Shown piece by piece: positions 3 through 62,356 of a stretch of 64,000 nt of DNA (its first letter is position 1; every line of letters begins with the position of its first letter). Both the position numbers and the translations under genes were made by a program. The notes below the pieces were generated by a model. The model saw nothing but the letters and a program-made list of their open reading frames with translations. It made no database searches and was not told where the DNA came from. The stretch lies in UHGV virus genome UHGV-1374671, one strand, 5' to 3'. The stretch is from a virus.

Positions 3-1088
3 CAGACGCAGGAGATCAAGAAGTACGTCGAAGGGGATCTGGCGTTCACCGACGCTGCGAAGAACACCCCGAAGGATCAGGTCCAGGAAATCCCGGGCGC
101 CCAGTCGCTGAATGCGACCCCGGAAAGCGCTCTGGCCGCCACCGGCACCAAGGTTGAGAACATCACCGCCGACGGCTGCCCGACCGGCACCCCGCAGGAA
201 CAGGCGAAAAAGGCGTCCGATTATCGTGCGCAGCTCGCCGGTATTCTGAAGCAGACCCAGCAGAAGAAGGCCGCCCAGGTTCAGAAGCAGGCTTCTTTTA
301 CCGAAGCCGACTTCCGCACCGGCACTGAGGTCATGGAAAAGTTCGCGTCGCTGACCCCGAATTCCACCCAGGAGGACATCCTCGCTGCGCAGGAAGATCT
401 GATCAAGCTGGCGAACACCAACCCGATCTTCGGCATCATTCGCGATCGCATCATCCAGACCAAGATGGCTGCGGACATTGATGCGCTGGCGGAAGCCGAG
501 GGAATCTCTCCGGAAGAAGCCGCTGCGGAGATGCAGGCCGCTGCGGACGCTGACCCGTCCATGATGGCGGCGCTGGAAGACGAGGCGAACGGTGAAGCCG
601 TGGCCGAGCTGGCAGAAGCCGAGGAAGCGACCGACGGACTGATGACCGAGATCCAGGGCATGGCCGACGCCGCGTCCCAGACCCTTGGCGAGGAAGTCAC
701 CCCGGACGACATCGTCGCCGCTGCTGAAGAGACCGACCGCATGGCTGCTGAACTCGGCGTTCCGCCGGAAGTGCTGATTCAGGCCGCGCTTGACGAGATG
801 ACCGGCGAAGCGGCCGCTGCGGAAGTTACCCCGGAAGACGAAGCCAACGCCCAGCAGATTCTCGATGCTGCCGCCGCCGAAGGCATCTCTCCGGAAGAAG
901 TGATCCAGATGGCCACCAACGAGCTGGAAGGCGGCTCGGCGGTGGAGGAAGACGCTGCTGCGGCCCCGGCTGCGGAAGAGCCCAAAGAAGAACCCACCGA
1001 GAAGGCAGCCAGTCTGCAGAAACGTGCGGGGACCTTGCGTGCGGAGTTCGTCCGTCAGATGCGCGCTCAGCGGCGGAGTCAGAAGTAA
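3..1088 (+). CDS. Ala/Glu-rich acidic scaffolding (or protease-scaffold) protein, 5'-partial (frame open from window start)
   Basis: Frame 3 open from base 3; very acidic, A/E-rich low-complexity, helical; lies immediately upstream of capsid genes. Confidence 0.5.
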   Translation, partial: QTQEIKKYVEGDLAFTDAAKNTPKDQVQEIPGAQSLNATPESALAATGTKVENITADGCPTGTPQEQAKKASDYRAQLAGILKQTQQKKAAQVQKQASFTEADFRTGTEVMEKFASLTPNSTQEDILAAQEDLIKLANTNPIFGIIRDRIIQTKMAADIDALAEAEGISPEEAAAEMQAAADADPSMMAALEDEANGEAVAELAEAEEATDGLMTEIQGMADAASQTLGEEVTPDDIVAAAEETDRMAAELGVPPEVLIQAALDEMTGEAAAAEVTPEDEANAQQILDAAAAEGISPEEVIQMATNELEGGSAVEEDAAAAPAAEEPKEEPTEKAASLQKRAGTLRAEFVRQMRAQRRSQK

Positions 1089-1104
1089 GGGAAGGAGGTC
1101 TGTA

Positions 1105-1557
1105 ATGGACTCGAATATGGATGCCCTTACAAAGCTGGCATCTGAGCTTACCGACCGCGTCGAAGCTCTTGAGAAGCAGAACGCACAGCTCTGCTCCGAG
1201 AACAAGGCGCTGAAGGAAAGCCAGGTGAAGCAGGCGGCTGCCACCGTGGTCTCGGAAGAGGTTGCGGCGAAAACCTGCGAACTGCTGGTGAAAGCCGGCA
1301 GCATCCAGCAGGATCAGGTGGAAGCGACCAAGCAGGCGTTTCTGCACGATCCGGAAGCAGCGCACCGCACAATTGAGGGTTTTGTTGACGCTCTCACTCA
1401 GGAGAAGGCAGCATCGAGCTCGGAAGAGCAGGAAGCTGACGACGTGAGTGGAGGTCGTCTGGCGGCTCCGTTGAGCGGTCAGGAAAAGACCGCCGAGGAT
1501 TCATGCCTCGACCGGATGTCCCAGATCCTCAACATGGGACACAGCAATCGCTGGTAA
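1105..1557 (+). CDS. coiled-coil head-assembly/scaffold-associated protein
   Basis: RBS GGAAGGAGG 6 nt upstream of ATG 1105; heptad-like coiled coil; position between scaffold and capsid. Confidence 0.45.
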   Translation: MDSNMDALTKLASELTDRVEALEKQNAQLCSENKALKESQVKQAAATVVSEEVAAKTCELLVKAGSIQQDQVEATKQAFLHDPEAAHRTIEGFVDALTQEKAASSSEEQEADDVSGGRLAAPLSGQEKTAEDSCLDRMSQILNMGHSNRW

Positions 1558-16678: not shown

Positions 16679-16770
16679 GCTGATTAACAGTGACCTGCAC
16701 CTGGTCCCCCTTACTGCGGCCAACGCTAACGTAAGGGGGATCATTTATTTTGAACTGAAAGGGATACATT

Positions 16771-19281
16771 ATGGCGGATTCCTTGTTTGTCGGCACCATT
16801 GCTGCCAGCGCTCCTGACTACGGTGTCGTTCTGGTGTCCAGAGGACATACCACAATTGGCCTGGGCGATCTCGTAATCGCTCATCTGCCATACAGTGACG
16901 GGCAGTTCGGGGCCGTTCCCAAGATCGCGTTCCCAACAGGAACCGATGTGCTGTGCTGGCAGAACGAAAGCTCCTCTCATCTGGCTTACGTGCTGGGAGC
17001 CGCCAACAAGATGATCAGCGACAATGAGGAGTACACAGGCGGCAATCTGCTGTACCATATCGACAAGTTCCTGACCGGTGACGCCCGTGCGTTTGAGGAC
17101 ATGCTGAACGGTCTCATCAGCCAGTACAGAACCTATTTCAGGAATCACTCCCAGGGGGCCGACAGGGACATCCTTCCAGGGGACTTCGACGCACTGGATA
17201 GGGAAGGCCTGGCCGGACTGCACGTGGGTCGTCTGCTTGCCACACTGCGGGGCTCATCGGTGTCCTGCATTGACGTGTCGTCACTGACCAACGCGATACG
17301 CTCCATCGGCGTCACAATAGAGGAGCACACACTCAGGACAGAACGCGTGGTGGATAATGGCATAACGGCCAACAACAGGGCGCTGTCCACCAGTGAGGCA
17401 TTCGGCCTGAGAACCGGTGCCATTATGGAACAGTCCCCTGATGGAACCTCCTTGAGCCCAGTCAATCCCAGCGCCATACCGCTATACCGGTTCCAGTCAG
17501 TGGAAGGAGAAGCGCTACATGGGTCAGAAGATCTGGTTGTCAGTTTCCCGCAGGATACCGAGGTGCATGATTCCGGTACGGAGCCTCCTATTCTGGCCAG
17601 GGAAAGGACGGATCTTGGAGGGGCTATATCCAAAGCCAGTTCGCAAGGCATCCTAATGGCGAAGACTCCGCTCATTCCCGGCATTCATCAACTCGGATAT
17701 GGTGAGCAATCCGCGAAGTCTCCTGACAGCGGCACGTTCTACGATCTCAGGGAACCCTATGAAGCAGGAGACGAGGGCGAGGAAACCACGGAAGAAAAAG
17801 ACGCTTCACCGGAAGAGAAGGTGGACGACGCAGCACTCAACAAGCTGATTGAAACCCTGCTGTCAGAGGACTACAAGGCGCTGCTCAAGGAGAAGCTGGC
17901 TGCCAAAGGCCTGAAGCTGTCCACCATTGACAGCTCCATCTACGGCAAGATGGAGGAGCCGGATGAGATTAGCGGGATCACTACTGAAGCGGCGTATCCG
18001 TTGCCGAAGACGCTGACCCTGGTGGATCCTGCCACTGGAAACGAGCAGCTGTACTATGCGTCAGCGTCGTTCATCTCCCAGGAGTCCGACGGCAGCATCC
18101 TGATCTGTGACGGGTACGGCAGCGAGATCCGCATGTCCCGTGGTAACATCTACATCGCATCCGCACTGGATACCTTTATTCGGCCTGGCCGCGACCTAAG
18201 TGCCATGGTGCCGAGACATCAGTCGTTCAATTCGCAGGGTTCCTGTACGATCAACAGTTCGGACGCCATGTTTGTCAGAGCCGTCAACAGTCTGAAGATT
18301 GCAGGAGCCACTGGAGGTACCGGAGTGGTGACTCTGGAAAGCAAATCCACCCAGGCCGTGGACGTTCCAGGTGGTCTGGTGATCAAATCGAACTCGAATC
18401 TGTCCGTGACCGGCAAGGATCTCTATATCGGCAGAAACGCGCATGAAGGCAAAGCTCAGAACAGGGTAACCGAGCCGGAAGAACAGGGCATGATCATCCT
18501 GGACGCCGGCAGCAACGGCACCATCCTGGAGCGCAGTTTGGCACACACCATGGACTCCATGGAAGTAACGGTGGGCTCGCTGCAGGGATACAGCAACGCG
18601 GCGCTGGTGGTGAGACAGGGCAACATCGGACTCCTGGCAAGGTATGTGCAGATACCTGCGAATGTCGCTATTCAGGGCCTGAACGGACTCGCCACTGTTT
18701 CCGTCTATCGGGACGGGGACATGGTAGATCTTGCGCTGACCACATCCTCTGTATGCGGGGTCACCGTAAACGGCAGCATGATTGTGGACAAGGATTTCCA
18801 GGTCAACGACAGTATGAAGGTTGTCAACACATTGCTGGCCAAAAAGATAGGTTCTACATCCGAACTAAACGGATTGATAGAGTCCAAGGAAGCCGACAAG
18901 GTGTTCCGCAAAGAAGGGCTCGGCTCATCCGTTGCACCGTCCAGTGTCGGCCGTACCGTGTCCGGTATGCTGAAGCAGAGATCGAATACCCTGTATCAGG
19001 ATTACTTCGTGACCGGCAACCAGTTCTCGTTCCCGAAGGACTACGGGATCAGCTCCACCTTGCGTTTCCCAGGCATGGTATGGCAGGCCAGGGACTTCAG
19101 GTACAGCACATCTGAAGTGGTGTGGACAGAACAGTACATTAAGGACGCCAACAACGAGGAAACTGCTTGCTACCCAGGATATAATGTCTGGGAAGAAGCC
19201 ACGCTGTCCGTGACCGGCTATGAAACCAAAAAGCTGAAGGACAGCTACGTCATCAATGCTGAAAGGACTCCTGTAAGATGA
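16771..19281 (+). CDS. large hypothetical tail-module protein (836 aa)
   Basis: ORF between tube and chaperone genes. Confidence 0.5.
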   Translation: MADSLFVGTIAASAPDYGVVLVSRGHTTIGLGDLVIAHLPYSDGQFGAVPKIAFPTGTDVLCWQNESSSHLAYVLGAANKMISDNEEYTGGNLLYHIDKFLTGDARAFEDMLNGLISQYRTYFRNHSQGADRDILPGDFDALDREGLAGLHVGRLLATLRGSSVSCIDVSSLTNAIRSIGVTIEEHTLRTERVVDNGITANNRALSTSEAFGLRTGAIMEQSPDGTSLSPVNPSAIPLYRFQSVEGEALHGSEDLVVSFPQDTEVHDSGTEPPILARERTDLGGAISKASSQGILMAKTPLIPGIHQLGYGEQSAKSPDSGTFYDLREPYEAGDEGEETTEEKDASPEEKVDDAALNKLIETLLSEDYKALLKEKLAAKGLKLSTIDSSIYGKMEEPDEISGITTEAAYPLPKTLTLVDPATGNEQLYYASASFISQESDGSILICDGYGSEIRMSRGNIYIASALDTFIRPGRDLSAMVPRHQSFNSQGSCTINSSDAMFVRAVNSLKIAGATGGTGVVTLESKSTQAVDVPGGLVIKSNSNLSVTGKDLYIGRNAHEGKAQNRVTEPEEQGMIILDAGSNGTILERSLAHTMDSMEVTVGSLQGYSNAALVVRQGNIGLLARYVQIPANVAIQGLNGLATVSVYRDGDMVDLALTTSSVCGVTVNGSMIVDKDFQVNDSMKVVNTLLAKKIGSTSELNGLIESKEADKVFRKEGLGSSVAPSSVGRTVSGMLKQRSNTLYQDYFVTGNQFSFPKDYGISSTLRFPGMVWQARDFRYSTSEVVWTEQYIKDANNEETACYPGYNVWEEATLSVTGYETKKLKDSYVINAERTPVR

Positions 19282-43713: not shown

Positions 43714-43937
43714 TGATGAACCTGGTAACTGACACCAGTAAGTATCGATGTGACATGGGCTGCGCTCTGAGTCGCGATCTGTTCACCGGGCTTAAAACTC
43801 GCAGCCTGGCGGCTGCGTGTTCACAGCCACGTTCACAAACGCGACTCAGAGCGCTTTTCGCCCTTGTCTTGAATATGTCACCGCCATCAATAGCAGTTTG
43901 CATTTTCTACTCCAGATATAAAATCCTCTATGACCCG

Positions 43938-50429: not shown

Positions 50430-52439
50430 ATGTTCAAGTTATCGAGAGTGCGTTTGCACAACATCTGCCAGTACGACGATGCGGACATTCCGATAGAGGG
50501 CGGACTGACTGCTGTGTGCGGCAAAAACGGGGCTGGCAAGAGCAACTGCATCAGGGCCATCGCCTACGGGCTCACCGGATTGGTGGACGGTTCCTGGGGC
50601 AATCAGCAGAAGCTCCAGAAGGACGGCACCGCCGATCCTGGCTGGGTTGAGGTGTACCTGACAGGAACCGAGGATCTGGTCGTCAGGAGATTTTCTACTT
50701 CGAGTACAAAATTTCCGGATCGGATTCTGAAGACGGTCAACGGAGTGGTAACCGAGGTCGCTGTCCGCCGCAAGGAGGTGGACAAGTACATGACGGGCGT
50801 GTTCGGCATTCCAGTGCCGCTCATGTTCCAGATCATGTGGGGAAGACAGGGCAGGCTGGACGATCTGCTTACGTCTCCTCCGGCGCTGGTGAACACGTTC
50901 CTGGCTGCGGTGTTCGACACCAAGAAGCTGGACAAGCTCAGAGAGAAGCTCAAGATCCAGATCGACACGATAGCTAACATCCCGGCCGACAGCGTGACCC
51001 TGCTTGAGCGATACAAGGCCGAGCGGGAAGCGCTGCCGTCAGTGGAGAGCCTGGCGGCGTCACTGGAGTCCAGCAAGGCAGCTCTGCATGATGCGGAGGC
51101 CAGACTGGAGGAGCTGAACGACACGATGAAAGCCGGCATCACGAAAGCGTCCCTGGATGGGTGCATCGCGATGTACACAGAAGAGCTTCAGACGTCCGAG
51201 AACTGGCTTTCCAGCAATCCTGAGACGCCTGAACCGTCTGTGCCGTCCATAGACGCGGCAACCGTTGATGTCAGCCTTGCAGGCGCTTCCAACGAGCTTT
51301 CCCAGCTGCAGAACCGGCGTAACCACACTGAGCTCACGCTGCGCAACCTGGAGGCAGGTCTTCCGGTCAAGAAGACCAATCTGCAGGATCTTCGTGACAG
51401 CCATCAGTCTATTCTGGACAAGATGTCGGTGCACGACTCCGAGTGCCGGCTGTGCAAGGGCCATATCGTGGACCACGTCAGTTACGACGCAGCGCGCTGG
51501 AAGATGCTGACCGGGTACACTACCCAGGAACAGTACGAGAAGGCCTTCACGGGCAAGGAAAGCACCCTTCTGGCCGTTATAAGCGCGGACGAGGATGCCA
51601 TCCGGACAGCCAGCCAGATGATCGATGCCATGGATGTGGAGATCTCGAAGCAGCAGGAGCTGCTTCAGAACCTGTCGGAATTGAAGGCGGCACATGAGGC
51701 GCATGCAAGATGGTCTGCGACCAACGAGCTGCGAATCATGCACACCGAGAAATCTAAAGGTCTTAATGAAGCACTTGACAAGTACAGGTCGATGACTCCG
51801 ATAGACGACTCGATTCCTCAGGACATCGCCGAGCTTTCCAGCAGAGTCGACCAGCTCAGAACCGAGGTGGAGACCAGGCAGAAAGCACTGTTCAAAACAG
51901 AGGCGGATTTGAAGTATTACGACAGGTCCATCCAGGACTACGAGAAAGCGGCTCAGAGCTACCAGATCAACTCAGAGGCCCGCAGAGTGCTCACTACGAT
52001 CCGTGACATATACTCTCAGGGACGGGCCCAGGCCAGGTACCTGCGTTCCAAGATCCAGCAGCTGAACAGGCGGATCGGTTCCTACATGGAACAGACCGGC
52101 ATGCCTTTCAGCCTGTATTTGAACGAGGACACCCACGTGTTCGAGTATGTGACTGACAGCGGATTCACGCACCCGGCAGCCCACCTGTCCGGAGCTCAGA
52201 AAAGCATCTCGTCTGTCGTTCTTCAGATGGCTATGCTGTCTGTAATCGGGCCCCAGATGAACCTGTTTCTCGTTGATGAGCCATCCGAGGCTCTTGATGA
52301 TGAAAACAAGATTGTCATGAGTTCGTTGTTCCAGAGGCTCAACAACTTACTACCGTCCATGGACGGAGTGATGCTGATTGTGACCCGAGATTCGCTCATT
52401 ATTGAGAGTTGTGAAAATGTCATAAATGTAGGAGATTGA
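50430..52439 (+). CDS. sbcC: SbcC/Rad50-family ATPase
   Basis: Walker A GKNGAGKS, central coiled coil with CxxC zinc hook, C-terminal LFLVDEPSEALD. Confidence 0.65.
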   Translation: MFKLSRVRLHNICQYDDADIPIEGGLTAVCGKNGAGKSNCIRAIAYGLTGLVDGSWGNQQKLQKDGTADPGWVEVYLTGTEDLVVRRFSTSSTKFPDRILKTVNGVVTEVAVRRKEVDKYMTGVFGIPVPLMFQIMWGRQGRLDDLLTSPPALVNTFLAAVFDTKKLDKLREKLKIQIDTIANIPADSVTLLERYKAEREALPSVESLAASLESSKAALHDAEARLEELNDTMKAGITKASLDGCIAMYTEELQTSENWLSSNPETPEPSVPSIDAATVDVSLAGASNELSQLQNRRNHTELTLRNLEAGLPVKKTNLQDLRDSHQSILDKMSVHDSECRLCKGHIVDHVSYDAARWKMLTGYTTQEQYEKAFTGKESTLLAVISADEDAIRTASQMIDAMDVEISKQQELLQNLSELKAAHEAHARWSATNELRIMHTEKSKGLNEALDKYRSMTPIDDSIPQDIAELSSRVDQLRTEVETRQKALFKTEADLKYYDRSIQDYEKAAQSYQINSEARRVLTTIRDIYSQGRAQARYLRSKIQQLNRRIGSYMEQTGMPFSLYLNEDTHVFEYVTDSGFTHPAAHLSGAQKSISSVVLQMAMLSVIGPQMNLFLVDEPSEALDDENKIVMSSLFQRLNNLLPSMDGVMLIVTRDSLIIESCENVINVGD

Positions 52440-52458
52440 TAATCATGGAGTTGCAAAA

Positions 52459-53736
52459 ATGAAAATTGTACTGGCCGATACAGTGATCACTGTGTTCGGG
52501 TGGCTCAATGTGATGGATCAGATCGGAAAGTACAAGCTGAAGATCCGCAAGACTCCTCAGGAGATCCGTGAGGAGAAGGAGATCAGACGACAGCGGTACG
52601 GAAGCGACGCCCATAAGGTGAATCCTATGCGGTACGAAGATCGCACCGTGATCGCCAAGAATCCGTCTGATCCTACCATCGCATACTTTCTCCCAGGGCT
52701 GTGGCCACGGGTGAAAGGCTATCTGGATACGCAGAAGATTACATACGAAATCGAGGACAAAAGGGATCCTTCCATCAGGCCTGACCCGGACTATTCAAAA
52801 CTGGCCGGAGCGACATTGAGACCAGGACAGGATACCGCCTTGGCCCTGATTACGTCGTTGGATTGTGGGCTAATAAATACCAGCACGGCATGGGGAAAAA
52901 GCCATCTAATATCTTTTATATGCAAGGTTTATCCCACGCTTAACATTGTCGTCACCACTGGATCCACCACGGTGGTCTCAACTCTGTACGAATATCTGTG
53001 CAAGCAGCTGCCCGGCCAGGTCGGTTACCTGTACGCCAGGGGCAACACCACGCATGGAAAACGGGTGATTGTGACCACGCTGAAGTCGTTGCCGAACATC
53101 TCTCCTGAGCGCGTCCAGTTGCTGTTGTGCGACGAGTGTCATGCCTGCGGAGACAACGAGGCCGGCAGGGCAGTGTCCAAGTTTGTGTTCAGCCGCAGAT
53201 TTGGATTCTCCGCCAGTCCGATCCGCAATGACGGCTCCAGAATCGTTATGGAGTCCATCTTCGGACCTGAGATCATGAAGATGACCTACCAGGAGTCTGT
53301 TGACGTTGGAAACATCGTTCCCATGAAGTACCTGATGCTGCCTTGTCACAAAGGGCCAACCAGCTTGTGCGACAAGCCGGGCATGGACGATGTATTCAAG
53401 AAGCGCTTCGGGTACTGGTGCAACTACAACAGGAACAGGGCTATTGTGGAACTGGTCTACGACATCAAGCAGGTGTATGAGGGCCAGATTTTGATAATGG
53501 TCGGTTCACTGGAACACGCAATTCAGTTGCACATTATGCTGCCCTGGTTCAAGGTCGCTCATTATGGCGCAACTGACTTGGACGAACTCAAGAAAAAGAA
53601 GTTCTCCAAAGACAAATACTCCGACATTGACTTTTCTCAGTACAAGATGAGCCAGAAGCAGCTGGACATTATGCGGGCCGCCTTTGCAAAAGGTACGCTC
53701 AGGTACGTGATCTGCACCAAAGTGTTTAAACAAGGT
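52459..53736 (+). CDS. SF2 DECH-box DNA helicase, exon 1
   Basis: motif I TAWGKSHL, motif II DECH; ORF runs into intron and hits stop 24 nt inside it. Confidence 0.6.
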
Positions 53737-54002
53737 AAACATCAATGCCTCGCAGCATAGGAATGTGCTGTCGTGAGCCGCTTAATTGCTGGGAACTCCG
53801 ACCGGGTAATGCCGAGGACAATCAGCAGCGAAGTCCTGAAAAGTAGGAAACGTTCAACGACTATCCCTGCGGGGAGTACACGCAAGTGCGTGGAAACAGC
53901 GGCCACCCAGAACGGGTGAAGATATAGTCTGACCTTGCATGGTAACATGCAGCTGGATTAACAATCCGGGCTGAGCGTAACGAACTCAGTTGAACACAAA
54001 AG
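53737..54002 (+). ncRNA. group I self-splicing intron (266 nt, no ORF) in helicase gene
   Basis: AATTGCTGGGAA P3/P4-like element, UAGUC P7-like element, P1 pairing exon CAAGGU with intron GCCUCG giving G.U at 5' splice site, intron ends in G; exon junction restores helicase motifs V-VI in frame. Confidence 0.6.
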
Positions 54003-54284
54003 GTTGATTTTAAAGCACTTACGGTGTTGTTCCGTGGAGACGGCGACGTGTCTGGTGTGGAATGTATCCAGATCCCTGGCCGAGTTGCCCGTCTGTCGGA
54101 AGGCAAGGACTGCGGTTACCTGATCGACGTCAATGACACGTTCAGCACTTGGTCCAGAGAGCGGTCACAGGCCAGAGAGAAGCAATATCAGGAGCAGAAA
54201 TGGACGAAGATAACAAGGGAGGATCTGCTGGATGATCTCCGTAGACTCACTGAAGGCAACCCTGACAGGGCTTCTGGGGAGTAG
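54003..54284 (+). CDS. SF2 helicase exon 2 (motif VI QIPGRVAR)
   Basis: in-frame continuation after predicted splice. Confidence 0.55.
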   Translation, partial: VDFKALTVLFRGDGDVSGVECIQIPGRVARLSEGKDCGYLIDVNDTFSTWSRERSQAREKQYQEQKWTKITREDLLDDLRRLTEGNPDRASGE

Positions 54285-54756
54285 GGTTCCCAGTGGATTC
54301 CCGTTCGAGTTGGTTGCCAAATCCCTGTTGAAGCAGGAGAAGGCAAGGGACATCAAGCTCAGTTCCTATGGGTATCTGATGTATGCCATCGATCACTACG
54401 GCGCCGGCATCCTGTACCGGAACATACTGGCGTCCAACAAGACGATCGAGGGCTATGCAGCGGAGGCCGACAAGTACAGAACCGACATGCCTGTCATGCT
54501 GGTCAATGCGGCACAGTACGTGGAGCATATCTTCAATCTGATTCCTGACATGGAAACATGCTTCAGGAAGCTGGAGGATATGACATTCCCGTATGTGCTG
54601 TATGTGCTGTTCACAGCCGGAGGCCAAGAGGAGCTTGTCACAAAGTACAAGGAGGACTTCGAGGAGCATATGCACAGATACCCGTCCACGCTGGATCTGC
54701 TGCCTGAGTCCTATAAGAAAGTCGGTACGGAGGTCAGCGATGCAGACGTTAAGTAA
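54232..54756 (+). CDS. hypothetical protein (174 aa)
   Basis: ORF; 5' end overlaps helicase exon 2, true start may be further downstream. Confidence 0.4.
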   Translation: MISVDSLKATLTGLLGSRVPSGFPFELVAKSLLKQEKARDIKLSSYGYLMYAIDHYGAGILYRNILASNKTIEGYAAEADKYRTDMPVMLVNAAQYVEHIFNLIPDMETCFRKLEDMTFPYVLYVLFTAGGQEELVTKYKEDFEEHMHRYPSTLDLLPESYKKVGTEVSDADVK

Positions 54757-56215
54757 GGTTGAGCTGGCGTTCCTGTCCGTGATCGGATATCCTGAACTCA
54801 CTTCCAAGGCGCTGAAGCTGTGTGCTGACAAGGTGATCCTGTTCGATAAGAACACGCACCCTCATGTGAGCATGATGTGGTCTGTTTACCTGAACACGTT
54901 GAAGAAGTACAAGAAGAAGTTCGGGTTGAAGGTATCCCATGATCTCATTGCAGGCGACCTGGACGAGGCGATCAAGAACGACGAGGACATGCCTGAGGAG
55001 GTGTTGTCCAGTTGTGAGACCATTCTCAACCGACTGGTAACTGGTCAGCTGCCGTCCAGGGAGGAAGGCATCGCGTTGATCCAGTCTCTGGTGAACCTGG
55101 ATGCCAACCGCAAGATCAGCGCCCAGGTGCTGAAGAACGCGGATCTGGAGGCCATCCAGAAAACCCTGGATTCGTCGAAGCGGGTCATGACCATACTGGA
55201 CAACACAGAGGATCTGAACAAGGGCAGGATCCTGTTCAATCCGTTCAATGAGATCCAGAACCTGGCCAAGCACGTGGTGCGGATCCCGACAGGCATCAAC
55301 TTCCTGGACATCGCATCCAGCGGTGGAGGCCGGTCCCAGGAGCTGTGGCTTCTTCTTGGTCCGTCAGGAGGAGGCAAGTCGACGTTCTCTGTTCAGTATT
55401 CCGCATCGCAGGCTCTGATGGGCAACAATACGCTGTGGGTCACTTACGAGCAGAGCATGGAAGGAGACTTGGCCGAGCGACTTATCGCCAACGTGACGGA
55501 CTGCAGTCTGGATGACATCCGTGATATCGGGTTCGACAATTTGAGCCAGGATATCAGGAACAAGTTCTGGGCTGCTGTGAACGGCTCCGAGGAGCACCTG
55601 AAAGTGTTGGACATGACCAGAATGGAGTTCGACCAGGAAGATCCTGCCGATGACTCCGGCATCTACTCGGTATGGAAGCGCATCAAGGAGCTGAAAGCGG
55701 AGGGATGGAGCCCGAAGACGGTCCTCATAGACTGGTTCGGCGCAATGATGTCCATGATCGGAACTGTAACCGGTCAGGACTTGTCCAAGGCGTACAGGTT
55801 CCTGGCTCAGCATCAGATCGACATTGCCCGCAAGATGGTCAAGGACGAGGATATCATGTGCATCTTCACACATCAGACCGACATGCAGACACAGCATGCC
55901 AGGCCGACCTATCCTCCCGACAAGACCAACTCGAAGGACATGAAAGACCTGTGCAACTACATGGACATCGTTCTCACACTTGGAAACAGGGACAAGAACG
56001 ACATCCAGTATTTCAATGCGGCCAAAGCCCGTAAGGGCGCGTCCGTCCTGCAGACGGTGCAGCTCATTGGAGAGAAGGCCAGGTTCAAGAAAGCCGACGG
56101 CTGGCTTCCAAACCGGGATGGGAACTTCTACCGACCCTCGGATGAGTACACATCAGACGAGGACGACGATATACAAGACGAGACTGCAAGGTCGTATACA
56201 AGAGAGATCATGTAG
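54740..56215 (+). CDS. DnaB-family replicative helicase
   Basis: RecA-like domain: Walker A LLGPSGGGKSTF, YEQSMEGDLAERL; start at ATG 54740 is a guess. Confidence 0.55.
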   Translation: MQTLSKVELAFLSVIGYPELTSKALKLCADKVILFDKNTHPHVSMMWSVYLNTLKKYKKKFGLKVSHDLIAGDLDEAIKNDEDMPEEVLSSCETILNRLVTGQLPSREEGIALIQSLVNLDANRKISAQVLKNADLEAIQKTLDSSKRVMTILDNTEDLNKGRILFNPFNEIQNLAKHVVRIPTGINFLDIASSGGGRSQELWLLLGPSGGGKSTFSVQYSASQALMGNNTLWVTYEQSMEGDLAERLIANVTDCSLDDIRDIGFDNLSQDIRNKFWAAVNGSEEHLKVLDMTRMEFDQEDPADDSGIYSVWKRIKELKAEGWSPKTVLIDWFGAMMSMIGTVTGQDLSKAYRFLAQHQIDIARKMVKDEDIMCIFTHQTDMQTQHARPTYPPDKTNSKDMKDLCNYMDIVLTLGNRDKNDIQYFNAAKARKGASVLQTVQLIGEKARFKKADGWLPNRDGNFYRPSDEYTSDEDDDIQDETARSYTREIM

Positions 56216-56239
56216 TTTGGTTCGATTGTGACTTGACTT

Positions 56240-56272
56240 TTTTTCGTTTTGGTGTTATGTTGCGAACGAGCA
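56240..56272. promoter_or_regulatory. 10-bp stem hairpin GTTATGTTGC-GAACGA-GCAACATAAC preceded by TTGACTTTTTTT
   Basis: seen directly between DnaB-like gene and next ORF. Confidence 0.35.
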
Positions 56273-56299
56273 ACATAACCTGAACGAAGGAGGTCGGTC

Positions 56300-56701
56300 A
56301 TGAAACAACCCGAGTTCGAGAAGCTCTGTAAGGATCTGGCCCGCATATGGACCAGAAAAGACGGGGCCCTGGCGAAGCTGGGCAGCTGCTCTGAGAGCAC
56401 TGGCTCGTACATCTTGTGCATCGGAGCGAAGAACAATACAGGGTTCTCCGCTCACTATTGCGTTGTGTGGGAAGGAGACAACAAGGCGTTTGAAGGCCGT
56501 CTCCATTCCATCGAACTCAGAAAATTCCTCACATCGAAACACCTCTGTTTCGCAGAGGTAACCACTTCACGCATGCTGGATCAGAACAAGAAAGGTCTGA
56601 TCAACTGCTACGGAAAGAAGGAGTCGTGCTGCAAGCTGAACTGCTCTGTACGCGACAGGAAGCCGTTCCAGGTGACTGAGACGGTGGCAACCACTCTGTA
56701 G
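56300..56701 (+). CDS. hypothetical Cys-containing protein (133 aa)
   Basis: RBS GAAGGAGG. Confidence 0.5.
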   Translation: MKQPEFEKLCKDLARIWTRKDGALAKLGSCSESTGSYILCIGAKNNTGFSAHYCVVWEGDNKAFEGRLHSIELRKFLTSKHLCFAEVTTSRMLDQNKKGLINCYGKKESCCKLNCSVRDRKPFQVTETVATTL

Positions 56702-56747
56702 CGCTCCCGGTATTGCCGGGCAGCGTGCATGTCCGGGAGGAAAGCAA

Positions 56748-57878
56748 GTGTTGAACAAACCACTCTATGACACGCTTGTGCGCATGTTCAAGCGTGTCGA
56801 AATCGCCAACGAAGGGCAGCATGCACGGGTCAGCAGGAAAGCGGGTACCGTGTCGGCGTGGTGTATTGAAAGGAACAACGAACACGGTGAGCAGTACCGT
56901 GTGAATTGTCCTTTCTGCGACGACCGGAACAAGCACCTCTACATTTCGTATCTGTCCTACATTCGTCCAGTCGTGAACGGTCAGGTGCTTCAGGTAGGCA
57001 AATTGAGAGCCCAGTGCTTTCGCAGAGGCTGTCTGAAGAAGATTGAGAACAGAGAATGGCTCGAAGGGCAGATCGCTATGTACAGGTTAGCTCTTGGAGC
57101 AGGTGCGGAAATTCCAAACATTGAAATCTCGGAAACAGACTCGGAAACCCTTCCCAGATACGAGGTGTCGGACGACATTTCCGTGGATGGGTTCAAGACA
57201 TGGGTACCTGATTATGAGCCGATCACAGCGCAGTCCAGGAGTGACATTCTGGAGTACCTGGCGGCTCGTCGTGTGTCCATGGATGACGTGGAATGGATGA
57301 GACTCGGCTGGGGGCCTGTCAAGTCCCCGCGTTCAGGCAACTACCTGAACAACGGCAGTCCGTTCATTCTGATTCCGATGATACAGAACAACCAAGTGAA
57401 GGGCATCCAGGGCAGGTGCCTTCCCCAGTACCTGAAGGAGGACGGCATCAAATACTGGATTCACCCTGCCTGCAGAAAACGTACTGTTGTGCTGAACATC
57501 GACATTGCCAGACAGCTCGGCCTTGGTGTCGTCTGTGAAGGCGCTTTCGATGTGCTCAGCATTGGTAAACCGGGCGTATGCACCTTTGGACATACACCAT
57601 CAGAAACGCAAAGGCGGTTGCTTACCACGTTCTCACAGGGCATCATATGGTGTCCTGACACGGACGTGACGCCGAGGCTGAATCCTATTCAGATCGCCAG
57701 GGAGCATGTTGCTGTCTGGAACGCGTCCAATGCGTTTCCGAAAGGTGCGCACGTCGTAGAACTGTCCCAGAAAGATGCCGGCAGTATGTCCCGGCAGCAA
57801 GTATGGGAGGAGATCGTTTCCCAGGTTCCTGCTCATATGCAGGACTTCCTGCTGGAGAGGATCATCCCAAACCTATAG
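56748..57878 (+). CDS. DnaG-type DNA primase (CHC2 zinc finger + TOPRIM)
   Basis: CPFCDD...H...C zinc motif; TOPRIM EGAFDVLS...DTD; GTG start with GGAGG upstream. Confidence 0.6.
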   Translation: MLNKPLYDTLVRMFKRVEIANEGQHARVSRKAGTVSAWCIERNNEHGEQYRVNCPFCDDRNKHLYISYLSYIRPVVNGQVLQVGKLRAQCFRRGCLKKIENREWLEGQIAMYRLALGAGAEIPNIEISETDSETLPRYEVSDDISVDGFKTWVPDYEPITAQSRSDILEYLAARRVSMDDVEWMRLGWGPVKSPRSGNYLNNGSPFILIPMIQNNQVKGIQGRCLPQYLKEDGIKYWIHPACRKRTVVLNIDIARQLGLGVVCEGAFDVLSIGKPGVCTFGHTPSETQRRLLTTFSQGIIWCPDTDVTPRLNPIQIAREHVAVWNASNAFPKGAHVVELSQKDAGSMSRQQVWEEIVSQVPAHMQDFLLERIIPNL

Positions 57879-57895
57879 GAACAGAGGAGATCGAG

Positions 57896-58924
57896 ATGCA
57901 AGACTTAGGCGTCGTCGACGTCAGCATGCGGCACTTTGTCGGGCCGGTTCACATCCGGGTATGGGAGCCCGGAGATCCGTTCCCGACACTGGGGCCTTCC
58001 GTTGGCGTTGACACAGAAACCGAGCTGATCACGGACACGGTGAAGGACCCGCCGGTAGTTGTTACCGGCGTGTTCGACCCTGCGAACTCGAATTGCTGGA
58101 TCGTTTACTGGCAGCATACCGCAGCGTTCATGCGGGAGCTGAACAAGCGCGACATCCAGCAGAGGTACTTCAACGTCGGGTTCGACGAACAGGTGCTCGA
58201 CAACGAGGACGAGGAGAAGAGCCTTCTGACGGCTGTCGACGCAAGGCGGGTGCGTGATATGCAGATCCGCATTCACCTGCACGAGATCGCCACGCTGGGT
58301 TGGATCCGAGGCAATCTGTACAACCTGGCGGACTGTGCTCTGCACTTCCTGAATGTGACGCTGGACAAGGGTGATCCGGACGACTACGAGAACTCTGCAC
58401 GAATGACGTTTCGGCGGCATAATAAAGATGGGAGCGTTTATCGCATAACGGATGAACAGGCCAAATACCTGTGTTATGACTGCGCTTCCACCTGGGGTCT
58501 CGGAGAATCGGTACCGGAACAGCCAACCGAGGTGGAACATACCAAGGGCATGATCGTCCTGGCACACATCAGCACCAACGGCATTCAGGTCGACCCTGTA
58601 GTGTTCGACGCCATGGAGGAGAAGCTGTTCAAAGCCAGGGACGAGGCCAGGCTTCGTCTGCTGGCGTTTGGATTCCCAGATCCGTACAAGGACGTCAAGA
58701 AGGAGGCCGCAGCCGAGCGTCAGCTTTTCTACTCGGAATACAAAAAGCTGTGTGAATCGGCAGGACTGGAGTGCCATCTCGGCATGGAGGAACAGACACT
58801 CGATGACGAAGACGAAACCGTCATTCAGGTTCCTAAAATACCAAAGAAGGACTCTCTCAGGCTGATGGTCTGCTACCTGTATCGATGCTTCACGTTCGTA
58901 CACAATACCAAGAACGCGGCGTAG
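57896..58924 (+). CDS. family-A DNA polymerase N-terminal 3'-5' exonuclease domain (exon 1 or separate exo gene)
   Basis: Exo I VGVDTETELI, Exo III YLCYD; stop codon TAG coincides with first bases of intron-like sequence. Confidence 0.55.
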   Translation: MQDLGVVDVSMRHFVGPVHIRVWEPGDPFPTLGPSVGVDTETELITDTVKDPPVVVTGVFDPANSNCWIVYWQHTAAFMRELNKRDIQQRYFNVGFDEQVLDNEDEEKSLLTAVDARRVRDMQIRIHLHEIATLGWIRGNLYNLADCALHFLNVTLDKGDPDDYENSARMTFRRHNKDGSVYRITDEQAKYLCYDCASTWGLGESVPEQPTEVEHTKGMIVLAHISTNGIQVDPVVFDAMEEKLFKARDEARLRLLAFGFPDPYKDVKKEAAAERQLFYSEYKKLCESAGLECHLGMEEQTLDDEDETVIQVPKIPKKDSLRLMVCYLYRCFTFVHNTKNAA

Positions 58925-59247
58925 GTACCTTTGCGGCGTGAGCCGCATCGAAGAAGAAAGTGAATTGCTGGAAGCCTAAACCGGGAGTGTAGCCCGGCAT
59001 GGTAATCAGCAGCCAATCAACCGGATCGCTAAACTGGATTCAACCATCCAGCATGCACCGGGGAAAAGGTTCAACGATCATCGGGGTGTCCACCTGATAA
59101 GCGGCCCCGTTAGCGTGCAAGCGTGCGCGAAGTGCTCCGTGACGGGAAACCGTCACGATGATATGATCTGTGCTACCCGAAAGGGATAGGAAGCCCCAGC
59201 CTGATCAGCTGGATAAGCCGGGTGAGCGTAGCGAACTCACTTGAACA
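58900..59247 (+). ncRNA. group I intron ribozyme core homologous to helicase intron (5' part of IStron)
   Basis: blocks GTGAGCCGC, AATTGCTGG, CCGGG...GCCCGG, AATCAGCAGC, GTTCAACGA, CAGCTGGAT, GAGCGTAGCGAACTCACTTGAACA co-linear with 53737-54002; exact 5' splice site unresolved. Confidence 0.55.
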
Positions 59248-59272
59248 AGAACCATGAGGTCTTATGAATCGA

Positions 59273-59292
59273 CGTAAATTCTCACATTTACG
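59273..59292 (+). repeat. IS left-end subterminal hairpin CGTAAAT-TCTCAC-ATTTACG
   Basis: perfect 7-bp stem ~25 nt inside predicted left end. Confidence 0.5.
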
Positions 59293-59293
59293 C

Positions 59294-59321
59294 TTGATAT
59301 TGTTGACGTACATGCTATATT
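59294..59321 (+). promoter_or_regulatory. sigma-70-like promoter TTGATA-16-TATATT for tnpB
   Basis: seen directly; ~35 nt upstream of GTG start. Confidence 0.45.
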
Positions 59322-59355
59322 AGAACCAGGTACTATAATACACGGAAGTTTTGAA

Positions 59356-60462
59356 GTGATAAGCAGAGCTCATACAATCAAGCTGAAACCCAATAAAGCA
59401 CAGGCGATCATGCTGGCCAAGACGGCCGGTACTGCCAGGTATGCCTACAACTGGGGATTGGCCAAGTGGAATGAGCTGTACGAAGCCGGTGAGAAGTGCA
59501 GTGCTTACAGCCTGATGAAACTTTGGCAAGAAGGCAGACCTGACTGGGCATTGGAAGTGGGCGCTGCGTGTTTGCAGCGCCCGTTCATGCACCTGGAAGG
59601 CGCCTTCAAAGCGTTCTTCAGAGGACAGCGTAAGCACCCAACCTTTCACAAGAAGGGTTTGCGGGACGGGTTCTACGTCCCGAATACTCATTTCAAACTC
59701 CGTGGTAACAAGGTTCAGCTACCCAAGTGCGGACTTGTCAGAATGACCGAGCGTATTCGTTACGCGGATGTGAAGGTTGTTTCTTCGGCAGTCAAGCACC
59801 AGGCAGACGGCTGGTATGTCGTAATCCAGGTCGAGCTTGAAGAGGAACACAGAACCGAATCCGACTCTTTTGTCGGAGTCGATGTCGGATGTACCCAGCT
59901 CGCAACAGCGAGCGACGGTACGACCTGCTGCTCACCGGCCAAGCTCAAAGACCTGGAACGTCAGCTGAAACGTAGACAGCGCTTGCTGGCACGCAAAGCC
60001 AAGGGCTCCAACAATCGAGCGAAAGCGAGATTGAAGGTAGCCCGTACCTGGCAACGAATCAACAATATCAAACAAGACACAGCTCACAAGTTCACTGCAC
60101 TCATTGCCAAGAACCACGGCACTGTTTGCATTGAAAAGCTGGATGTGAAGAGTATGCAATCAGGAGACAACGCCCTCGTAAGAAAGGGCGTGCATAACTC
60201 CTGCATGTCGGAAATCCTGAGACAACTCAAGTACAAGTGTAACAACTTTATTGAAGTTGACAAGTATTTCCCGTCCAGTAAGACTTGTTCGAACTGTGGG
60301 CACATAAACGCTGAACTGACCCTTGGGGATCGCACGTATAATTGTCCGGGCTGCGGACTGAAAATCGACAGGGATCTGAACGCAGCGTTGAACCTCCGTA
60401 AGGAGGGTCTGAGGATTTACACGGTGGGTCACACCGGCAGTGCCTGTGGAGTTGCCCGGTAA
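59356..60462 (+). CDS. tnpB: TnpB (IS605 OrfB family RNA-guided endonuclease)
   Basis: RuvC-I VGVDVG, RuvC-II E in CIEKLD, zinc finger CSNCGH...CPGCG, RuvC-III DRDLNAALNL; N-terminal OrfB helix-turn-helix region; GTG start after GGAAG. Confidence 0.75.
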   Translation: MISRAHTIKLKPNKAQAIMLAKTAGTARYAYNWGLAKWNELYEAGEKCSAYSLMKLWQEGRPDWALEVGAACLQRPFMHLEGAFKAFFRGQRKHPTFHKKGLRDGFYVPNTHFKLRGNKVQLPKCGLVRMTERIRYADVKVVSSAVKHQADGWYVVIQVELEEEHRTESDSFVGVDVGCTQLATASDGTTCCSPAKLKDLERQLKRRQRLLARKAKGSNNRAKARLKVARTWQRINNIKQDTAHKFTALIAKNHGTVCIEKLDVKSMQSGDNALVRKGVHNSCMSEILRQLKYKCNNFIEVDKYFPSSKTCSNCGHINAELTLGDRTYNCPGCGLKIDRDLNAALNLRKEGLRIYTVGHTGSACGVAR

Positions 60463-60559
60463 CGGGCGGCGCTGAAGCAGGAAGATTCATAAGAATCGTG
60501 AACAGAACCACTCGGACGAGCCTGACGAGCTCCAGCTGTGTGCCGAGAACGTCAAAATC

Positions 60560-61453
60560 GTGTGCGAAATGGAGAAACCGTCACTGCGGAAAGACGCCAG
60601 GAACATGTACTCGAAGCTCCTGGAGGACTACGAGATCATGGCGTTCGACCAGGCCACCAAGGGAATCGTCATGCCGTCGTTTGTGGCGCATCTGATGGAG
60701 CACTACAACAAGCAGCGTGATTCCGGAGAGGTCGCAGCAAAGGGCTACGACTTCGGAGCCGCAGTCAAGTACGCCAGCGAGTACATCGACGATCATCCTG
60801 AATGGCTGTCGAAATCCGAGCAGATAGGTCCCAGCAAATTCTTCCAGAATCATGTGAAGGGCATCATGGAGGCCAATCCGAAGCTGGAGCTGGAGACCAC
60901 TCCCAAGAGTGGGGCAGTCAAGCTGACACTCAAGGACAAGTGGCGGTTGGAGGACAACGGCATCAAGGACAAGTTCTTGGATGCTTACATTGACTTCAAT
61001 CATTGCCAGAAATATTTAAGTACCTATATGAACCGTTTGTTCATCAAAGGGGATAATCGGATACATGCCAGGTTCACAAATATTTTGCGGACCGGACGTA
61101 CCAGCTGCACCGGACCTAACTTGCAGAATTATCCCAGCAGGGACAAGGTGTTTCCGTTGAAGAACATCTTCTGTCCTTACGATGGCATGCTGTTGTGTGC
61201 TACCGACTTCTCGTTTATTGAGTTGTGTGGCTTTGCCCAGTCCTGTTACAGCAGGTTTGGGTTCAGCGTTATGCGCGACGTCATCAACGCAGGTCTGGAT
61301 CCGCACCGCTGGTTCGCAGCGGTGATGGACAAGCTGATCAAGCCGGACCTGACGCACAAGGACGACCCGAAATGGGTCGCGGAACTGAAAGGATTTTTGA
61401 AAGCAAATGTAGACGATTCAAGACGACAAAAGGCCAAAATGGCCAATTTCGGT
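60560..61453 (+). CDS. family-A DNA polymerase palm/fingers segment (pre-motif A RIHARFTNILRTGRTSCTGPNLQNYP, motif A DFSFIELC, motif B RRQKAKMANFG)
   Basis: frame open from 60476 immediately after tnpB; ORF stops 6 codons after NFG inside motif B. Confidence 0.6.
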
Positions 61454-61672
61454 CGACCATCAAGGCCGAATTAAAACTGCGGAATTAAGCGGGGAACTCT
61501 CATTGAGACGATCCGAACCGAAGCCTGGAAGGGATTCCAGTCAGGGACAGAGCATACCGGCAGGGGAAGAACTCCCATCAGCCGACACGAGGCCGCAGCA
61601 ACTGGAGAAACAACTCTGGTTGAAAAGATATGCCGAGCTGTGTGGCGACATACAGAAGTGCTGGATAAAAAG
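61454..61672 (+). ncRNA. small group I-like intron (~215 nt) interrupting polymerase motif B
   Basis: interrupts conserved NFGxxYG motif with stops in all frames; shares GCGGGGAACTC and CGAAGCCTGGAAGGGATTCC blocks with the other two introns; boundaries approximate. Confidence 0.45.
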
Positions 61673-62328
61673 CCGGCACGATAACAAAACTGTTTCCAGG
61701 AGCACTGGGTGTCAAGACTTTCTACAGGAACTGCAGGGAGTCCGGCGTACACCTGACCATGGAAGAAGCTGAATTCATGCGGGATGCGTGGATCAGCACT
61801 TTCAAGGAAATGAAGTTCCACATGAAGCCAGAGAAGTTGCGTAACTCGACAGGGTTCGGCAACCAGTTCGGCTTCAGGGACGACGAAGAAGAGTACATCG
61901 ACCCGTCCGAGCAGGACAGGCAGTTGTACAGGGCAAAATTAATTAATGGAATGGTTAGAAACAGGTGCAGTTTCAATGCGGCCTGTAATATGCAATTCCA
62001 AGGGCTCGTGGCATTTGGCGCGAAGCTGGCAGGCTGGAATCTAGTAACTCACGGATACGAACATAGAGTAGTCAATTTCGTACACGACGAATTTCTGTAC
62101 TGCCTGTATCCGGAGGAGCTCAAGGTCCACATCCCTGTCATTGAGCGCCTGATGATCGACGGGATGAGAGTTGCCATCCCGGATGTTAAAGTAGGAGTGG
62201 AATCCAGCGTCATGCGTCATTGGGACAAGAAGGCGACGGAATTCCACGACGTGAAGTGGGACGAGCAGGGAAGACCGCTCATTGAAGAGCCGCTGTTCGT
62301 CCAGAGTGTTCTCAAAATGGCCCAGTAG
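61673..62328 (+). CDS. family-A DNA polymerase C-terminal segment (O-helix tail...motif C VHDE)
   Basis: KLFPGALGVKTF...EEAEFMRDAWISTF continues the post-motif-B region; HDEFLY = motif C. Confidence 0.55.
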
Positions 62329-62356
62329 GGCGAACGAAAACGAAAGGTACGCAAGA

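Follow-up and report, generated by a model that had tools for sequence, protein, structure and literature searches.

A predicted endonuclease-free td-type group I intron within motif V of a phage SF2 helicase gene

Overview

In the window, the whole 64-kb stretch of viral DNA analyzed here, positions 53737..54002 very probably constitute a T4 td-type group I intron (subgroup IA) that has no endonuclease gene. It splits motif V of an SF2 helicase gene that is XPB/UvsW-like and belongs to the replication module. A first-pass annotation, made from the sequence alone, had proposed a 266-nt ORF-less group I intron at this position; this proposal is borne out by the Rfam score, by P1, P10 and the terminal G, by an intron-less relative, by gap-free protein alignment, and by covariation. 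Gene callers break the helicase and the DNA polymerase into fragments in this uncultivated phage lineage. Annotating the intron rescues the full-length helicase and, together with two neighbouring elements, the full-length DNA polymerase as well.

The phage is distant from cultured relatives. No terminase from a cultured phage exceeds 26% identity to its own, and tblastn searches with the helicase and the terminase return only proteins 22–27% identical. The crAss-like phages are known for their dense introns and inteins (PMC7886860); none of the best terminase matches is to this group. Relatives of the helicase occur on viral contigs of up to approximately 225 kb. No tRNA genes were found in the 64-kb window. 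At 43762..43854, the 15-nt arms of a perfect inverted repeat (GCGCTCTGAGTCGCG / CGCGACTCAGAGCGC) flank a 63-nt spacer; this repeat causes sub-threshold palindromic 'MIR7486' matches on both strands.

The insertion and its boundaries

More than 80 uninterrupted helicase homologs (~519 aa) give gap-free alignments to the spliced protein over the ...QG|V[D/N]F... junction. Among them, P0001 is 96% identical and is encoded on a 123-kb contig (L001) that is syntenic with the window at a DNA identity of 91–95%. The blastn alignment to L001 is interrupted precisely at 53736|54003, a point at which the L001 sequence runs on (11278|11279). The L001 flanks at this junction, CAAGGT|GTTGATTTT, are identical to the window flanks, with exactly the 266 nt missing; the intron-less site reads ...TTTAAACAAGGTGTTGATTTTAAAGC.... 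The spliced junction predicted in the first-pass annotation, CAAGGT|GTTGATTTT, is the sequence found in intron-less DNA. Since the bases on the two sides differ, the intron boundary cannot slide. No terminal repeats or target duplication were found at the boundaries in comparison with L001, and the intron does not stand out in base composition within 52000-62500. Four public contigs, each assembled independently, carry the intron-containing allele unchanged, and one of them (L050) is 100% identical over 7.3 kb.

Around the junction (-278 to +22; 53458..53758, ~300 nt), divergence from L001 is approximately 3 per 100 nt, as opposed to 10–18 differences per 100 nt further upstream in the same gene. 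This low-divergence tract may reflect recent recombination or exchange, or a co-conversion tract, with which it is compatible without being proof.

The interrupted helicase gene

The arrangement of the gene, based on the ORF list, splice arithmetic, and Pfam domains of the spliced product, is as follows:

52459..53736, plus strand: helicase exon 1, 426 codons, ending ...KVFKQG, with U53736 as its last base
53737..54002, plus strand: predicted group I intron, 266 nt, without an endonuclease gene (Rfam RF00028; exactly absent from L001)
53758..53760, plus strand: in-frame TAG in the P2 loop, ending translation of unspliced RNA
54003..54284, plus strand: helicase exon 2, VDFKAL...QIPGRVAR..., stop codon included

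As had been noted from the sequence, the helicase ORF (52459..53760) stops shortly after ...KVFKQG, with the TAG at 53758-53760 lying 24 nt into the insert. Exon 2 had been described as following in frame. This is correct after removal of 53737..54002 (266 nt = 3n+2), which joins exon 1 in frame with VDFKALTVLFRGDGD...QIPGRVAR to give a 519-aa protein, but in the genome itself exon 2 occupies a different frame from exon 1. Of the other in-frame 3' ends at a G from 53940 to 54030, three lead into stop codons and three would remove conserved residues. The spliced 519-aa product contains the Pfam ResIII and Helicase_C domains. In exon 2, we found no start codon of its own with a ribosome-binding site.

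A family profile finds XPB-type helicases (6p4f, E = 2e-22) as well as T4 UvsW. In the profile alignment, STkVFkQG|VN is aligned to XPB ASTVFDEGVDVP, which is motif V, and motif VI (QIPGRVAR) follows approximately 23 codons downstream of the insertion site. This places the intron within motif V (STxVFxQG|V[D/N]F) rather than, as originally suggested, between V and VI. Compared with L001, the spliced gene has 147 nucleotide differences and 19 amino-acid changes, of which exon 2 accounts for 19 and 2, respectively, both of the latter conservative. The small number of amino-acid changes per nucleotide difference indicates that both exons are under purifying selection. The helicase is conserved across the whole phage group.

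Ribozyme anatomy

The Rfam scan suggested in the first-pass annotation places the insert well above threshold: Intron_gpI (RF00028), for which the gathering score is 50, matches at 88.1 bits (E = 4e-21) over model positions 1-253. A sub-threshold score, named there as a sign against the intron, was thus not obtained. This match spans 53727..53952 and is the only one at the gathering threshold in the 64-kb window. The helices assigned are:

53733..53750, plus strand: P1, exon AGGU plus intron A (53733-37) paired with the internal guide UGCCU (53746-50)
53741..53746, plus strand: 5' strand of P10, AUCAAU, pairing at 6 of 6 positions with the first exon 2 bases, GUUGAU (54003-54008)
53751..53773, plus strand: P2 hairpin, from the minimum free energy (MFE) fold; missing from the L007, L047 and L049 versions described below
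53777..53903, plus strand: P3, GCCGCU (53777-82) paired with AGCGGC (53898-903)
53787..53853, plus strand: P4-P6 domain; the endonuclease ORF of relatives lies between its P6/P6a strands
53787-92 with 53822-27, plus strand: P4, UGCUGG/UCAGCA
53797-99 with 53816-18 and 53803-05 with 53812-14, plus strand: P5 and P5a
53828-30 with 53851-53 and 53834-38 with 53844-48, plus strand: P6 and P6a
53859..53929, plus strand: P7, a pseudoknot helix with P3, GACUA (53859-63) paired with UAGUC (53925-29), flanked by J6/7 and J8/7 (GAAGAUAUAGUC)
53864-75 and 53879-92, plus strand: P7.1 and P7.2, both co-varying (helices 9 and 10 of the alignment described below, 94–95% paired)
53904-18, plus strand: P8, CACCC/GGGUG
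53935..53990, plus strand: P9 (53935-52), P9.1 (53953-69) and P9.2 (53970-90) hairpins, with ~72% identity to their T4 td counterpart
54002, plus strand: terminal (omega) G, with the 3' splice site after it

P1 is formed by A53733-U53750, two G-C pairs, the U53736.G53747 wobble at the 5' splice site, and A53737-U53746, and thus includes the pairing of exon AGGU (53733-36) with intron GCCU (53747-50) that had been recognized in the first reading. P3 encloses the P4-P6 domain, the 5' strand of P7, and P7.1/P7.2, and P7 in turn spans P7.1, P7.2, the 3' strand of P3, and P8. The reported P3/P4 consensus match corresponds to AATTGCTGGGAACTCC (53784-53799), which aligns to J3/4-P4-J4/5-P5 of the Rfam consensus; the UAGUC noted as P7-like is the 3' strand of P7, for which GACUA is the partner; and the element ends, as stated, in G (G54002). 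J3/4, J6/7, J8/7 and P7 agree with the consensus. In a base-by-base check from P1 to P9, all core helices are perfect stems of Watson-Crick or G.U pairs. An unconstrained MFE fold (-89.3 kcal/mol) recovers the nested helices P2-P6, P7.1, P7.2, P8, and P9-P9.2, with a z-score of -2.9 that is only moderate for a plain fold.

The listed ORFs within the intron are one of 48 aa (53773..53919, plus strand) and one of 68 aa in antisense, and no endonuclease was found. Based on the presence of P7.1/P7.2 and the relatedness to td, which were the two IA2 criteria tested, the intron probably belongs to subgroup IA, T4 td type.

Homologous introns at the motif V site

The alignments of 11 homologs stop exactly at residue 426. 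Homologous introns interrupt this same codon boundary in at least eight other lineages (at least nine including the window) whose helicases have amino-acid identities of 49–82%, and the site is unoccupied in L001 (96% amino-acid identity) as well as in the majority of homologs. A scan of IMG/VR returned uninterrupted helicase genes only and no further introns. The related introns are:

L002: partial, 88.5% nucleotide identity to the first 96 nt of the window intron
L003: 434 nt, Rfam 79.4 bits
L004/L005: 1,108 nt
L007/L008: 1,105 nt
L009: 1,090 nt
L047: 1,200 nt
L049: 1,120 nt
L006 and L048: partial

The extra sequence of the long versions is located between positions ~97 and ~112 of the window intron, i.e., between the P6/P6a strands. 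By sequence, the nearest relatives of the window intron are those of L003 and L004, one of which is ORF-bearing.

In an alignment of 10 intron cores, 85.2% of cells are paired, compared to 35–42% when partners are slid. Both sides have changed in 47 of the 74 pairs, including four of the six P3 pairs. The covariation score is 0.453 versus at most 0.155, and none of 500 shuffles reaches the observed values. The P1 guide follows the exon across lineages (AAGGU/GCCU versus AGGGU/GCCC[U]), and the P10 of each relative fits the exon 2 of its own lineage.

These data bear on whether the 266 nt could be some other insertion, such as a miniature transposon or an assembly artefact, with a coincidental resemblance to a group I intron. 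The probability of this is negligible given the Rfam E-value (4e-21), a fold backed by covariation, the occurrence of the allele on four independently assembled contigs, and boundaries without terminal repeats or target duplication; the Rfam score, the L001 boundary comparison, and the covariation already effectively refute it.

Proposed splicing pathway

The group I intron is predicted to be catalytically competent and to splice, by steps modeled on the standard group I pathway. The 5' exon end AGGU would pair with the internal guide GCCU to form P1, and a free guanosine bound at P7 would attack after U53736. P10 (AUCAAU x GUUGAU) would then align exon 2, and the exon 1 3'-OH would attack after G54002, producing ...CAAGGU|GUUGAUUUU... 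and a continuous 519-aa helicase. On RNA that is still unspliced, the TAG located 24 nt into the intron would stop ribosomes.

Alternatively, the insert could be a group I relic that does not splice, leaving the helicase truncated at residue 433 or in two pieces and the gene dead or split. The absence of an endonuclease gene would suit an element in the decay phase of the homing cycle, and the diverged core of the third element, in the polymerase gene, demonstrates that such cores exist in this genome. However, every core helix of the helicase intron is intact and its J3/4, J6/7, J8/7 and P7 fit the consensus. Moreover, exon 2 differs from L001 by just the two conservative amino-acid changes among its nucleotide differences, lacks a start codon and ribosome-binding site with which it could be translated separately, and belongs to a helicase conserved throughout the phage group. 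We consider a relic highly improbable and a splicing intron the better description of 53737..54002.

Endonuclease ORFs and the origin of the ORF-less form

The introns of L004, L007, L047, and L049 each contain an HNH/EndoVII-like ORF of 291–320 aa that matches HNH/endonuclease VII PHROGs (E = 1e-14 to 5e-17); Pfam returned nothing for these ~290-aa ORFs, so their identification comes from PHROGs. The endonucleases are 34–57% identical to one another. Because relatives of ~1.1 kb at the same site carry the HNH gene, the window copy represents the endonuclease-free form of a homing intron family. In a non-exhaustive scan of the window, no candidate for a trans-acting endonuclease was identified. 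For the direction and mode of mobility, we infer that the window intron persists by vertical descent plus recombination, or by homing driven in trans during co-infection.

The window copy likely arose by loss of the endonuclease ORF, a scenario that we favor over an ancestral ORF-less state. In the latter, less probable scenario, the ORF-less intron is ancestral at the site, the HNH gene invaded the P6a loop later and elsewhere, and the window copy never had an endonuclease. Such later invasion is the accepted route to composite mobile introns (PMC3984707). The apparent relic in the window does not discriminate between the two: the C-termini of the relatives' endonuclease ORFs run into the ribozyme core, and the 48-aa ORF of the window shares their terminal peptide (RKRSTTIPAGST...), but the conserved core itself encodes this peptide, and core sequence alone thus accounts for the frame. 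Outside the core, only L003 has an endonuclease remnant, a stretch in its 170-nt insert with a match to endonuclease residues ~236-268. The weakness of this similarity leaves room for an ancestral ORF-less intron, while its retention argues against one, as does the inclusion of an ORF-bearing form among the nearest relatives of the window intron (L003, L004). Endonuclease-bearing versions are also present in at least five diverged lineages and are mutually homologous, suggesting that the ORF is old at this site.

Whether selection keeps the ORF-less intron, as opposed to merely tolerating it, is a more speculative matter. By splitting the motif V target, the intron could make the helicase gene immune to the HNH homing endonucleases of relatives, although we regard this benefit as doubtful. 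With similarly little confidence, and by analogy, the intron might be seen as a shield in the competition between co-infecting phages, the counterpart of the PhiPA3 'weapon' against phiKZ (PMC11620839). If correct, this could also explain the occurrence of three introns within 8 kb of the replication module. Across related phages, this single insertion site is found empty, endonuclease-bearing, with an endonuclease in a recoded code, partly deleted, and fully ORF-less, and these states are useful for work on homing-intron life cycles and on the part that such introns play when phages compete.

The recoded state is that of L009, in which the intron (3800..4889 of L009, equivalent to ~9347..10436 of L051) encodes an HNH endonuclease that reads through 296 codons to a TGA without a frameshift. 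It is 45% identical to intact homologs and contains 21–23 in-frame TAGs and no other stop. The terminase homolog of this phage (L051 1742..3541, minus strand) contains 26 in-frame TAGs, and its replication-module genes contain none. Because its in-frame TAGs are shared with the terminase homolog and absent from replication-module genes, the endonuclease appears to use the late, TAG-recoded code inside an early, standard-code helicase gene; a parallel TGA case has been described for Agate phages (bioRxiv 10.1101/2021.08.26.457843). A decayed endonuclease gene was considered for this ORF and ruled out, since each in-frame stop is a TAG, a codon that this phage recodes. A search of 19 kb of sequence found no suppressor tRNA.

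Inteins and a fused endonuclease in the helicase gene

Many members of the helicase family are 800–890 aa long and contain intein domains of the Hom_end type (PF05203/PF05204) at or adjoining the Walker A motif (TAWGKS; query residues ~138-149). These are P0019, P0027, P0038, P0053, P0056, P0060, P0066, P0081, P0094, P0104, P0106, and P0107, of which the last two have both the intein and the motif V interruption. In L002, which at 82% amino-acid identity is the closest relative with the intron, an endonuclease ORF of the GIY-YIG/NUMOD3 (SegE-like) type (189..1475) is fused in frame upstream of helicase residue 228, at motif II (DECH), and the motif V intron is also present after this fusion. 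Motif II is thus a third hot spot for mobile elements in the gene.

Comparison with known introns

The T4 td intron belongs to subgroup IA2 and carries I-TevI, a GIY-YIG endonuclease. The 3' half of the window intron is 72.5% identical to it over 144 nt from P7 to P9.2 (E = 4e-11), with no detectable nucleotide similarity in the 5' half. The two share the P1-P10 architecture, P7.1/P7.2, and the P9.1/P9.2 tail, and both occupy a conserved motif of a DNA-metabolism gene in a large phage. The td endonuclease ORF region lies between the P6/P6a strands, as in the relatives of the window intron. In contrast, the td host gene is thymidylate synthase rather than an SF2 helicase, and the endonucleases of the window intron's relatives are of the HNH/EndoVII type, with none in the window copy.

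A nucleotide search with the whole gene against annotated phages matched the intron and not the exons. The best nucleotide matches among annotated phage records are introns of the phiKZ family of jumbo phages (e.g., PHIKZ072.1), which show 71–72% identity along a 183-nt segment that starts in the 3' P4 strand and reaches P9.2. These reside in other host genes of another phage lineage and, unlike the window copy, encode HNH endonucleases. The PhiPA3 intron endonuclease acts in competition between co-infecting phages (PMC11620839). There is also precedent for introns in helicase genes, as those of the Staphylococcus myophages Romulus, Remus, K, and G1 are interrupted by group I introns (PMC5526547), although the window helicase is only ~22–27% identical (tblastn) to the helicases of cultured phages. 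Phage introns as a rule insert into conserved motifs of DNA-metabolism genes (PMC3984707). Given the likeness to td and phiKZ introns, the helicase-gene precedent, and this rule, the helicase intron is of an already known kind; it is an ordinary example of a well-known type of element and leaves the knowledge of group I introns unchanged.

Related elements in the DNA polymerase gene

Compared to L001, the DNA polymerase A gene of the window contains two exact window-specific insertions, each of which follows a U and ends in G:

58883..60505, plus strand: related element 1 (site 1), 1,623 nt; group I core (58883..~59255) plus TnpB gene; junction TAT|AAC (CYLY|NHSD)
59356..60462, plus strand: TnpB (IS605 OrfB) ORF in element 1; Pfam OrfB_IS605, Cas12f1-like TNB, and HTH
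61454..61692, plus strand: related element 2 (site 3), 239 nt, diverged and group I-like, in motif B (KAKMANFG|FPGALGVKTFY)

The first-pass annotation counted two more copies of the helicase intron in the polymerase region and concluded that the family had spread within the replication module. The insertions are real, group I-type, and of the same broad class, but neither is a close copy of the helicase intron. At the Rfam gathering threshold, no second intron is detected in the window, and Rfam misses the 61454..61692 element entirely; the polymerase elements were detected with permissive settings, a family-specific nhmmer profile, and a custom covariance model. Element 1 has a core homologous to that of the helicase intron: Rfam gives 26.3 bits, which is below threshold, nhmmer an E-value of 1.6e-11, and our own covariance model 45.5 bits (E = 4e-9). 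Detection of the 61454..61692 element is marginal (own covariance model 15.6 bits, E = 0.05; nhmmer E = 0.011), yet it is the third-best covariance-model match in the window, against a background of at most 7.3 bits, and falls inside an independently defined insertion. Its P1, P3, P7, P8, and P9 are perfect stems and its P4 is weak. P7 co-varies among the three window elements (GACUA/UAGUC, GAUCA/UGAUC, and GCAUA/UAUGC). By these sequence measures, only the 58883..60505 element is clearly related to the helicase intron, with the 61454..61692 element only marginally detectable as such.

L001 lacks all three window introns and has a 280-nt group I intron of its own (16763..17042, Rfam 94.8 bits) at a third polymerase site (GGACCT|AACTTG); the window is uninterrupted at the corresponding position (61117|61118). 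Based on these differences, intron content turns over rapidly between genomes that are 91–95% identical.

Element 1 is an IStron-like chimera of a ribozyme and TnpB. Its TnpB gene is apparently intact, with a near-full-length match to ISDra2 TnpB (E = 1.6e-44) and GVDVG, IEKL, and DRDLNAALN RuvC motifs read from the alignment. IStrons combine a group I intron with an IS200/605-family element, and include CdISt1 as well as CbISt3/4 in C. botulinum phages; the ends of group A IStrons are TTGAT/ATTAT/TTTAT ... TCAG (PMC4227781). Like these, element 1 has an IA-type ribozyme at its 5' end and TnpB (ORF B) toward its 3' end, and it begins after ...TGTAT and ends ...ACAG, close to group A; it differs in lacking TnpA. 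No unambiguous P1 could be assigned by hand.

We also considered the helicase intron as a miniature IStron that uses the neighbouring TnpB in trans via its own guide RNA. This was rejected on similarity: in sequence comparison, the helicase intron resembles element 1 over just 47 nt of the ribozyme's P9.1/P9.2 tail and does not resemble its TnpB 3' or right-end region at all. With neither this similarity nor any IS component, the helicase intron is not an IStron.

The putative guide RNA end of element 1 is AACCACUCGGACGAGC, and its TnpB putatively targets TGTAT-AACCACTCGG.... In the empty site 1 of L001, the last base of the putative target-adjacent motif differs (TAC, not TAT), and the first 20 bases of the would-be guide target contain three differences.
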